Shown here one piece after another: positions 24,256 through 25,548 of a DNA stretch of 32,000 nt. The DNA is from Candidatus Jordarchaeales archaeon (GTDB lineage Archaea; Asgardarchaeota; Jordiarchaeia; Jordiarchaeales; Freyrarchaeaceae), in contig JAWAHN010000001.1 of the NCBI GenBank assembly GCA_038889235.1, positions 824,499 through 856,498 of the forward strand, in the 5' to 3' direction. The notes below the pieces were generated by a model. The model did no database searches and was not told where the DNA came from. It saw only the letters and a list, made by a program, of their open reading frames with translations. Position numbers and translations under genes: made by a program. Every line of letters starts with the position of its first letter. Position 1 is the first letter of the stretch.

Positions 24256-25548
24256 TAAGCCTCCACCTTCCCGAAACAATGCGGCTTACAGCAACTCTTT
24301 GACCGTCCTCAGCGCACACAGGACGGCGTAGCTTAATTTCAACCTCGTCGCCCCTAACCGACGAAATGGTGCCTACGGTTACAGCCGACCCGACATTAAG
24401 CATCAGCGACTCGTTAACATGCACGTTCTCCACCTTTGCAAGCTCCTCGCTCCCCACAACTCTTTCCATTAAGTGAAGCTCGATGCACAAGTCATCGCGC
24501 ACAGGTGGAAGCGTTCCGGGGGCTCCAACAACGTTTCCTATGAGACCATCAGCCTTCGTCAAAGACGGGTCAAGTTTTGTTCCAATACCGATCAAGCCTC
24601 CAGGCAGAGCCTCTTCAAGCCACACGTCACCCGCCTGCAAACTGACAACGTCGGCGTAGATGGGCTCAAATCCCCCCTTACCAGCAACCCCAGGACGTAT
24701 TTCTATTTCGTCGCCAACTCTAACCTTGCCCTGAATTATTGTTCCGCCTATGACTCCTCCAACAAGATCCTTCGGCTTAGTCCCTGGCTTGTTAACATCA
24801 AATGACCTAGCAATGTACATTCTCAGAGGCTTACTTGGGTCCCTGACAGGGTCAGGGATGTGTTTCTCCATGAAGTACAATAAAACGTCTAAGTTGACCC
24901 CTAAGACCGCTGAGACAGGGATGATGGGAGCGTCTTCAGCGAAAGTTCCACTAATAAACTTCTTAATCTGTCTGAAGTTTTCCATCGCCTTCTCCCTTGA
25001 GACAAGCTCGACCTTGTTCTGAACGATAACAATGTTCTTCACACCAACGATTTCCAAGGCTGCAAAATGTTCCCGCGTCTGCGGTTGAGGACACGGCTCA
25101 TTAGCAGCAATAACGAAAATGCAACCATCCATAAGTGACGCACCACTAATCATAGTGGCCATAAGTCTCTCATGGCCAGGCGAGTCGACGAAACTAATCT
25201 TGCGCACAAACTCGGCTTCTCCTCCACACTTCGGGCACTTCCACCCTCCAGCCATAGCCAGAGTGAAATAGTTACCAGGAGGGGGACAGGACGGGCACCT
25301 TAAAACAACAGCGTCAGCGTAACCCAGCTTAATTGTAACCCCACGGCGCTTTTCCTCACTATGACGCGCGGCCCAAATGCCCGTTAAAGCTTGTACAAGC
25401 GTGGTTTTTGGCCCGTGGAAACCTATCCCCACGGATTGCCATGATCAACGTCTCCGGCGCCAACTGTTCAGCAACAACTAGCGTGTCCGGCCGTTCCCAC
25501 GGAAACCAAGGCCTGCGTAGTCATGGCTTTTTTACAAGCTTCACTCAA
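24233..25548 (-). CDS. eif2g: Translation initiation factor aIF2 gamma, spliced: complement(join(24233..25406,25436..25451,25485..25548)), 417 aa
   Basis: Spliced N-terminus [36 protein letters not shown], followed by IKLGYAD, Zn ribbon, DSPGHE, QNKVE and RWRLIG. Alternative start ATG 25524. Confidence 0.95.
25407..25435 (-). other. BHB-type mRNA intron 2 in eIF2-gamma (29 nt)
   Basis: Central helix UGGC/GCCA (perfect), bulges AA^U and AA^A, hairpin CCGUGGGGA-UAGG-UUUCCACGG; in-frame UAG. Splicing gives GGC AAA ACC (G-K-T). Confidence 0.93.
25452..25484 (-). other. BHB-type mRNA intron 1 in eIF2-gamma (33 nt)
   Basis: Central helix CCGG/CCGG, bulges AC^A and AG^A, 11-bp hairpin CGCUAGUUGUU-GCUG-AACAGUUGGCG; in-frame UGA. 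Splicing gives GGA CAC GTT (G-H-V). Confidence 0.93.

Follow-up and report, generated by a model that had tools for sequence, protein, structure and literature searches.

In the papers searched, cbf5 is the one archaeal protein gene for which an endonuclease-spliced intron has been confirmed; in Crenarchaeota such as Aeropyrum and Sulfolobus it is interrupted once (PMC2738675). Our search of the literature found no bulge-helix-bulge (BHB) introns in Asgard protein genes; the published archaeal cases amount to one intron in one gene, cbf5. The gene described here, for the translation factor aIF2-gamma, lies on the minus strand of a 32,000-nucleotide (nt) stretch of DNA from a hot-spring Asgard archaeon, Candidatus Jordarchaeum in the Jordarchaeales (contig JAWAHN010000001.1), which we call the window and whose positions serve as coordinates throughout. 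Judged from its sequence and those of its relatives, this is very probably a three-exon gene, the pre-mRNA of which carries two archaeal, tRNA-type BHB introns, of 33 and 29 nt, placed 16 nt apart.

Like the cbf5 pre-mRNA intron (Watanabe 2002; Yokobori 2009; PMC2738675), the aIF2-gamma inserts are short, interrupt a protein gene and form relaxed BHB motifs; attribution to a hetero-oligomeric tRNA-splicing endonuclease, EndA, and a history of gain and loss among lineages are further apparent likenesses. The differences are as plain. Where cbf5 has one intron, aIF2-gamma has two, 16 nt apart, and they split a catalytic motif; the host is an Asgard archaeon and the gene encodes a translation factor; and the splicing of cbf5 has been confirmed by experiment, whereas that of aIF2-gamma is predicted from sequence. 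What the Asgard genome offers is the cbf5-type mRNA intron in a form with two introns and a micro-exon.

Transcripts with more than one BHB motif, introns separated by very short pieces, and the same enzymes are familiar from tRNA genes with multiple introns, such as those of Thermoproteales, Jordi-, Freyr- and Atabeyarchaeia and Cyanidioschyzon merolae (bioRxiv 10.64898/2026.10.13.758758; 10.1101/2023.11.21.568159). In Jordiarchaeia the mean is about two introns per tRNA gene (bioRxiv 10.64898/2026.10.13.758758; see also 10.1101/2023.11.21.568159), and sequential processing has been documented for C. merolae tRNA (PMC3978253). In a tRNA, however, the mature fold holds the exons together; in aIF2-gamma that role could fall only to outer helices of 4–5 base pairs (bp), and it is an open reading frame (ORF) that would result.

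Spliceosomal micro-exons offer another likeness, since a 16-nt exon is too short for ordinary gene calling, but the likeness is one of layout only; the mechanism, with its spliceosome and GU-AG introns, is unrelated. The initial annotation of this DNA saw in the gene a striking parallel to eukaryotic gene structure, and this holds for the layout but not for the mechanism. Because the machinery we infer is EndA together with the ligase RtcB, the closest counterparts in eukaryotes are tRNA splicing and the splicing of HAC1/XBP1 mRNA rather than the spliceosome. In HAC1/XBP1 mRNA, too, a short intron is cut by a protein endonuclease at paired stem-loops and sealed by a tRNA ligase (IRE1; RtcB/Trl1), and the reading frame, and with it the protein made, is switched. 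Unlike aIF2-gamma, HAC1/XBP1 uses the IRE1 endonuclease and another motif, has one intron, and is under stress control; we see no indication that the aIF2-gamma introns are regulated, and they have no bearing on the origin of the spliceosome.

The gene model

The collinear reading frame of the gene (24233..25432, minus strand) matches Pfam eIF2_C (1.4e-32), GTP_EFTU (6.9e-23) and GTP_EFTU_D2. It opens with GTG and reads MGIGFHGPKTTLVQ.., and therefore lacks the GTP-binding loop, or P-loop, GHVDHGKT. The missing parts lie upstream, in pieces: read as RNA, an ATG at 25524 leads through ..GTG GGA ACG GCC GGA C into a 33-nt insert (25484..25452); this is followed by 16 nt, AC GTT GAT CAT GGC AA (25451..25436, minus strand; ACGUUGAUCAUGGCAA, also ACGTTGATCATGGCAA), then by a 29-nt insert (25435..25407), after which A ACC ACG CTT runs into the long frame. 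Both inserts fall within codons of the P-loop. When both are removed at the cuts that the BHB rule predicts, what results is an open frame of 1230 nt, 409 amino acids (aa) from the ATG or 417 aa from a TTG further upstream. The first 163 aa of the spliced protein align to Pyrococcus abyssi aIF2-gamma (1kk0) from residue 3 onward (E 8.5e-66), free of gaps across the P-loop. The 16-nt micro-exon that the initial annotation had proposed is thus borne out: the string reads on the minus strand as claimed, and the spliced frame is restored.

We compared this locus with others in a set of 30 Asgard aIF2-gamma loci, the window's own (L001) included, to which later loci were added. The motif GHVDHGK[TS] is unbroken in 23 of the 30, one locus begins at a contig end within the motif, and six, L001 among them, are interrupted. 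The intron lengths in the window, 33 and 29 nt, become 34 and 30 nt in a close strain (L040, about 97% identical by eye, from a Logan contig of run SRR32459163) and 30 and 31 nt in L002 (genome G003), of the same genus. L003 (G002), also of the same genus, and L041, a Logan contig that falls in the genus-level clade of the gene tree, lack intron 1 and have an intron 2 of 29 nt. So, too, in the same family but another genus (G004; L004 and L042-45), intron 1 is absent, and intron 2 has 30 nt, remains in frame, and contains a TGA. The lengths drift, that is, off multiples of three (33/34/30 nt for intron 1; 29/30/31 nt for intron 2). The micro-exon keeps its 16 nt in L040 and L002, with one synonymous change.

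That the interruptions are errors of assembly or sequencing is next to impossible: the only observation that might favor this is a single-base difference in L040, discussed below, and at least three assemblies and read sets, independent of one another, show this architecture. The interruptions recur in G003, G002 and G004, and in the Logan contigs of two runs.

Nor does the locus look like a gene in decay. Over codons 3–19, synonymous and non-synonymous codon differences from the window number 6:0 in L002, 5:0 in L040, 8:2 in L003 and 9:2 in L041, and, read in the spliced frame, exon 1 and the micro-exon show by this measure the pattern of coding sequence under purifying selection. It could be argued that the inserts are junk, and that no full-length aIF2-gamma comes from a locus whose public gene calls yield only products of 387–403 aa without a P-loop. 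But the gene is essential, and the genome yielded no second copy of it. The other 390 codons have stayed intact in all the relatives, purifying selection acts on exon 1 and the micro-exon when they are read in the spliced frame, and the same interruptions are kept across genus and family; we consider a pseudogene very unlikely. The three-exon model, in contrast, is strongly supported by the comparative evidence. Its features, as predicted, are collected in Table 1.

Upstream of the first ATG, the TTG at 25548 is probably the true start, because a run of GGGGG precedes it and because the peptide that it adds (E-A-x-K-K-A-M/I) is conserved in relatives, as read by eye. Further upstream, TTTTAAATA is the likely TATA box of the aIF2-gamma promoter; a block, GGAAACTTTTAAATA, upstream of the gene is conserved in the window, L002, L003, L004, L040 and L041.

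Table 1. Predicted features of the aIF2-gamma gene and its transcript, in window coordinates
Feature	Position	Strand	Description
Candidate TATA box, TTTTAAATA	25596..25604	-	aIF2-gamma promoter; from the archaeal promoter consensus
Candidate start TTG	25548..25546	-	GGGGG at 25560..25556 ahead; first ATG at 25524, 24 nt further downstream
Exon 1	25485..25548	-	ends GGAC; supplies first base of His codon; frame and junction from sequence and homologues
Intron 1, outer helix h1	AACG 25492..25495 with CGUU 25450..25447	-	G25491 unpaired between h1 and H1
Intron 1, central helix H1	CCGG 25487..25490 with CCGG 25457..25454	-	ensemble probability 0.9–0.98
Intron 1, 5' bulge	A25486 C25485, cut, A25484	-	AC/A (slash, cut)
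Intron 1	25452..25484	-	33 nt; hairpin -16.8 kcal/mol; in-frame UGA
Intron 1, stem	25483..25475 with 25466..25458	-	9 bp, CGCUAGUUG/CAGUUGGCG
Intron 1, 3' element	A25453 G25452, cut, A25451	-	AG/A
Micro-exon	25436..25451	-	16 nt; last two bases of His codon, Val-Asp-His-Gly, first two bases of Lys codon of GHVDHGKT
Intron 2, distal outer helix h2	CCACG 25400..25404 with CGUUG 25450..25446	-	4/5 pairs; probability ~0.15; overlaps h1 partner
Intron 2, central helix H2	UGGC 25438..25441 with GCCA 25412..25409	-	in local minimum-free-energy structure
Intron 2, 5' bulge	A25437 A25436, cut, U25435	-	AA/U
Intron 2	25407..25435	-	29 nt; hairpin -17.0 kcal/mol; in-frame UAG after removal of intron 1
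Intron 2, stem	25434..25426 with 25421..25413	-	9 bp, CCGUGGGGA/UUUCCACGG
Intron 2, 3' element	A25408 A25407, cut, A25406	-	AA/A
Exon 3	24233..25406	-	third base of Lys codon, TTLVQALTG... to stop; rest of GTPase domain, domain II, eIF2_C

Intron folds, covariation and enzymes

Structures were derived from the minimum-free-energy (MFE) fold of the 141-nt region and from each motif folded alone, and ensemble probabilities were computed. Both inserts are built in the same way: the last exon bases pair with the last intron bases in a 4-bp helix, a 3-nt bulge that contains the 5' junction follows, and a 9-bp stem closes the intron; a 3-nt element after the closing strand contains the 3' junction. 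The 5' bulges, ACA in intron 1 and AAU in intron 2, are canonical, and the 9-bp intron stems close them. The 3' sites are relaxed. In intron 1, AGA lies opposite a single G, to give a 1 x 3 internal loop; in intron 2, a 4 x 4 loop follows AAA, and the outer helix comes only after it, four bases away. EndA cuts after the second base of the 3-nt bulge element, and for both introns of the window the cuts that this rule specifies are exactly the junctions that protein homology demands. By reading of the sequences, they are also right in L002, L003, L041 and L004, and wrong for intron 1 of L040.

How often might this agreement arise by accident? With the exons held fixed, each intron was shuffled 200,000 times, all equivalent junctions and both orientations of the motif being allowed. 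The core geometry fell on a permitted junction in 0.18% of the shuffles for intron 1 (p 0.0018) and in 0.17% for intron 2 (p 0.0017).

Covariation leads to the same place. Among six intron-2 sequences, 94% of cells are paired and nine pairs have changed on both sides; in the stem, seven of the nine pairs change on both sides. No shuffle in 500 reached any of the observed measures, and sliding the partner strand by 1–3 columns reduced pairing to 43–53%. The central helix, H2, is fully paired in all six, with U-A, C-G and U.G as its first pair in different sequences, exchanges that are synonymous changes of a His codon in the exon and are matched by changes in the intron. The initial annotation had assigned UGGC, at the 3' end of the micro-exon, to this helix, and rightly so: the pairing is present in the local MFE structure. 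Intron 1 is represented by three sequences, a depth at which shuffles are uninformative; its central helix and stem are 100% paired in these, with one compensatory change, C-G to U-A in H1, and six one-sided changes.

The outer helices are another matter. In h1, 75% of cells are paired in the three sequences, and in both relatives with intron 1 only two or three of its four pairs form; the helix is not conserved. We rejected covariation in the outer helix of intron 2 as a sign of structural selection, because the complementarity of h2 is mostly dictated by its Val-Asp and Thr-Thr codons, and homologues without introns are equally complementary: at the one free position, 13 of the 24 homologues that lack the intron are complementary, as are four of the six that have it. 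In most aIF2-gamma genes, with introns or without (L005-L029 being intron-less homologues), the Val-Asp and Thr-Thr codons on either side of the P-loop are mutually complementary (GUNG/CNAC). Such a ready-made exon helix may favor the retention of BHB introns, or their recurrent insertion, at this codon.

Several observations weigh against the idea that these inserts are spliced BHB introns. No 3' site of either intron is a canonical bulge closed by an adjoining outer helix. The generic BHB core is barely enriched in the genome, with 8075 matches against about 6800 in shuffled sequence, or roughly one per 0.5 kb, and for this reason the core alone proves nothing. In L040, one additional G separates the closing strand of intron 1 (L040:1458-1526) from AGA, so that the strict rule, two bases past the central helix, cuts one base early and the frame shifts; either the contig is in error here, or the choice of 3' site is partly set by the outer side rather than by the rule alone. 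The spliced form of this lineage's protein is absent from a collection of 5.8 billion proteins, among near-length matches, cluster members and short fragments: the near-length matches and cluster members are only genome-collinear calls without P-loop, and there is no close short fragment. Metagenome contigs scanned for the spliced junction between micro-exon and exon 3 gave ten matches, none of them aIF2-gamma; these were bacterial GTPases of 600 aa that resemble TypA/BipA. What lies beyond chance is the landing of the BHB core exactly on the junctions that homology defines, together with the covariation.

Could the ribosome rather than the RNA be doing the skipping? GCCGGA stands at both ends of intron 1, much as take-off and landing sites do in ribosomal bypass, and GGA..GGA spans 33 nt with a stem-loop between. 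The repeat, however, is the palindromic central helix, CCGG/CCGG, which is lost in L002 (CUGG/CUAG) and yet still pairs there; a ribosome that landed at the second GGA would make GDVDHG rather than GHVDHG; a second, unrelated event would have to be assumed for intron 2; and bypass would not explain why both inserts fit the BHB rule exactly. Bypass or frameshifting in place of RNA splicing therefore seems to us extremely unlikely. The three-exon model and the BHB nature of both inserts, as the initial annotation had them, are supported by these comparisons.

The genome has the enzymes that BHB splicing would call for. There are two EndA paralogues (196 and 195 aa), the first of the pair matching the catalytic half of EndA models or else the structural half, called 'subunit beta', and the second the half that remains; and there is one RtcB (599.9 bits). 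Enzymes of (alpha-beta)2 form cut relaxed BHB motifs outside tRNA (PMC2738675; PMC5829648), and the pair in this genome has, by sequence, the two-subunit architecture of the kind that cuts relaxed motifs. While the presence of these enzymes is plain from the genome, the actual cutting and joining we infer. EndA would excise both introns, and RtcB would seal the junctions of the micro-exon with exon 1 and with exon 3. A GTPase with a P-loop would be encoded only by mRNA from which both introns had been removed; unspliced RNA would end at the in-frame UGA in intron 1, and RNA that retained intron 2, at the in-frame UAG. If this is confirmed, the enzymes of tRNA splicing can build a three-exon mRNA, and the region of about 140 nt becomes a small, defined substrate with which to study EndA site choice in relaxed, non-tRNA motifs.

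By eye, seven of nine introns carry UGA or UAG in frame, within the hairpin loop or close to it (25469-25467 and 25425-25423 in the window); those scored are from the window, L002, L003, L004, L040 and L041, and unspliced RNA would then end early. A long-range helix between exon 1 and exon 3, present in the MFE structure of the 141-nt region, is weaker in L002 and, by eye, not evident in L003; z for the whole region is -1.41. Rfam has no match in the window at gathering score, and none at E<=1 in 25300..27000, and ARAGORN finds no tRNA in the window. Nor does either intron have other copies in the genome (blastn-short); we see no sign of intron duplication or transposition.

The shared micro-exon and the order of splicing

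For so small an exon, the micro-exon is heavily committed. Its A is the third base of the 3' element of intron 1; CGUU is a possible strand of h1; GAUCA is a linker; UGGC is one strand of H2; and AA forms the first two bases of the 5' bulge of intron 2. The initial annotation had placed CGUU in the outer helix of intron 1, where it does pair with AACG, in the local MFE structure and with an ensemble probability of about 0.55 in the window sequence, although not in a manner conserved in relatives. It had also noted that the only plausible outer pairing for intron 2, CGUUG with CCACG at four of five pairs, uses the same CGUU, and we find no other.

From this sharing it had proposed that splicing might be ordered, as for multi-intron archaeal tRNAs. 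In a strict form of this reading, CGUU(G) would serve one outer helix at a time, one intron would be cut and sealed first, and no free 16-mer would appear. The outer helices do share 25450..25446 and so exclude each other, and in Cyanidioschyzon merolae the BHB motifs of pre-tRNA are processed sequentially, according to stability (PMC3978253). There is a geometric argument as well, of reasoning and not of data: since each central helix pairs exon with intron, only an outer helix can tie neighboring exons, 5' to 3', after cleavage, and a single segment of 5 nt could not do so for both introns.

What the folds indicate is less orderly. Competition is confined to the outer helices; in each of the three species with two introns, the two BHB cores, each made up of central helix, 5' bulge and intron stem, form together. 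The contested segment, moreover, changes hands. In the window, where the Val codon is GUU, h1 (about 0.55) prevails over h2 (about 0.15) and the segment goes to intron 1; in L040 and L002, where the codon is GUG, h2 has five of five pairs at a probability of about 1.0, h1 is absent, and the segment goes to intron 2. Hairpin stabilities rank inconsistently: for introns 1 and 2, respectively, the energies are equal or nearly so in the window (-16.8 and -17.0 kcal/mol) but favor intron 1 in L040 (-23.8 and -14.2) and L002 (-18.0 and -15.7), the very sequences in which intron 1 is without an outer helix. Add to this that the complementarity of h2 is a by-product of codons and that h1 is not conserved, and an obligatory order appears doubtful; the proposal finds no support in these comparisons.

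A more specific version can be imagined, in which CGUKG toggles between the two outer helices and so forces sequential removal, the 16-nt exon always remaining attached on one side, while the choice of Val codon, GUU or GUG, decides which intron goes first. We regard this as improbable; were it true, it would amount to a structure-programmed, multi-step pathway of mRNA splicing in an Asgard archaeon.

It had been supposed, too, that the ligase must handle a 16-nt intermediate. It would join the micro-exon at both ends, but a free 16-mer would arise only if both introns were cut before either junction was sealed. If splicing is confirmed, then either RtcB-type ligation copes with a very short middle piece, or the folding pathway prevents its release.

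History, annotation and neighboring genes

Intron 2, at 29–31 nt, is present in all six Jordarchaeaceae sequences compared, which makes it no younger than the family. Intron 1 occurs in three of the five Jordarchaeum lineages. It appears to have arisen later, within the genus, 16 nt upstream of intron 2, and then either to have been lost precisely from two lineages, or to owe its present distribution to the unresolved branching of these lineages. In the gene tree, G004 falls outside a well-supported Jordarchaeum clade, and the nodes inside that clade are unresolved or weak, for which reason the tree does not settle the case for one gain and two losses. Two further genomes fall short of this comparison: in G311 the aIF2-gamma gene is cut by a contig end, and in G001, an assembly 73% complete, the gene is not present.

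The same Lys codon carries a 29-nt insert, at a position offset by one base, in a distant, AT-rich Asgard genus (g18, family f9; L030 and L037-L039). The central helix of this insert is AUGG/CCAU in L030, and only three of the four pairs form in L038 and L039. This points either to recurrent gain at the Lys codon or to an old intron.

The public calls of 387–403 aa without P-loop (P0002, P0004, P0005, P0006 and P0124, for the window's gene and its Jordarchaeaceae relatives) all begin inside intron 2 or after it, and so the annotation is consistently truncated; in the window the start called is GTG 25432, in the region 25407-25432. If the three-exon structure is confirmed, it follows that gene callers mis-annotate such genes.

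The neighbors of aIF2-gamma are genes for EF-1alpha, a PIN_9/Fcf1 protein, Rpb7, Spt4 and DUF359. Downstream of it on the same strand (23162-24279 in the window) are a PIN_9/Fcf1-like gene and an ORF that corresponds by position to the Rpb7-like gene (SHS2_Rpb7-N plus S1) of relatives, where Spt4 and DUF359 come next; this order of genes downstream is conserved across Jordarchaeaceae contigs. No homing-endonuclease gene lies beside aIF2-gamma, and Pfam recognizes nothing among the ORFs of the 1.4-kb spacer; with neither intron present elsewhere in the genome, the idea of a mobile intron that travels with such a gene finds no support here. This divergent spacer (25600-26960 in the window), which separates aIF2-gamma from the EF-1alpha gene, is A/G-rich and poor in ORFs, has no match in Pfam or Rfam, and is about 850 nt longer in the window than in strain L040.

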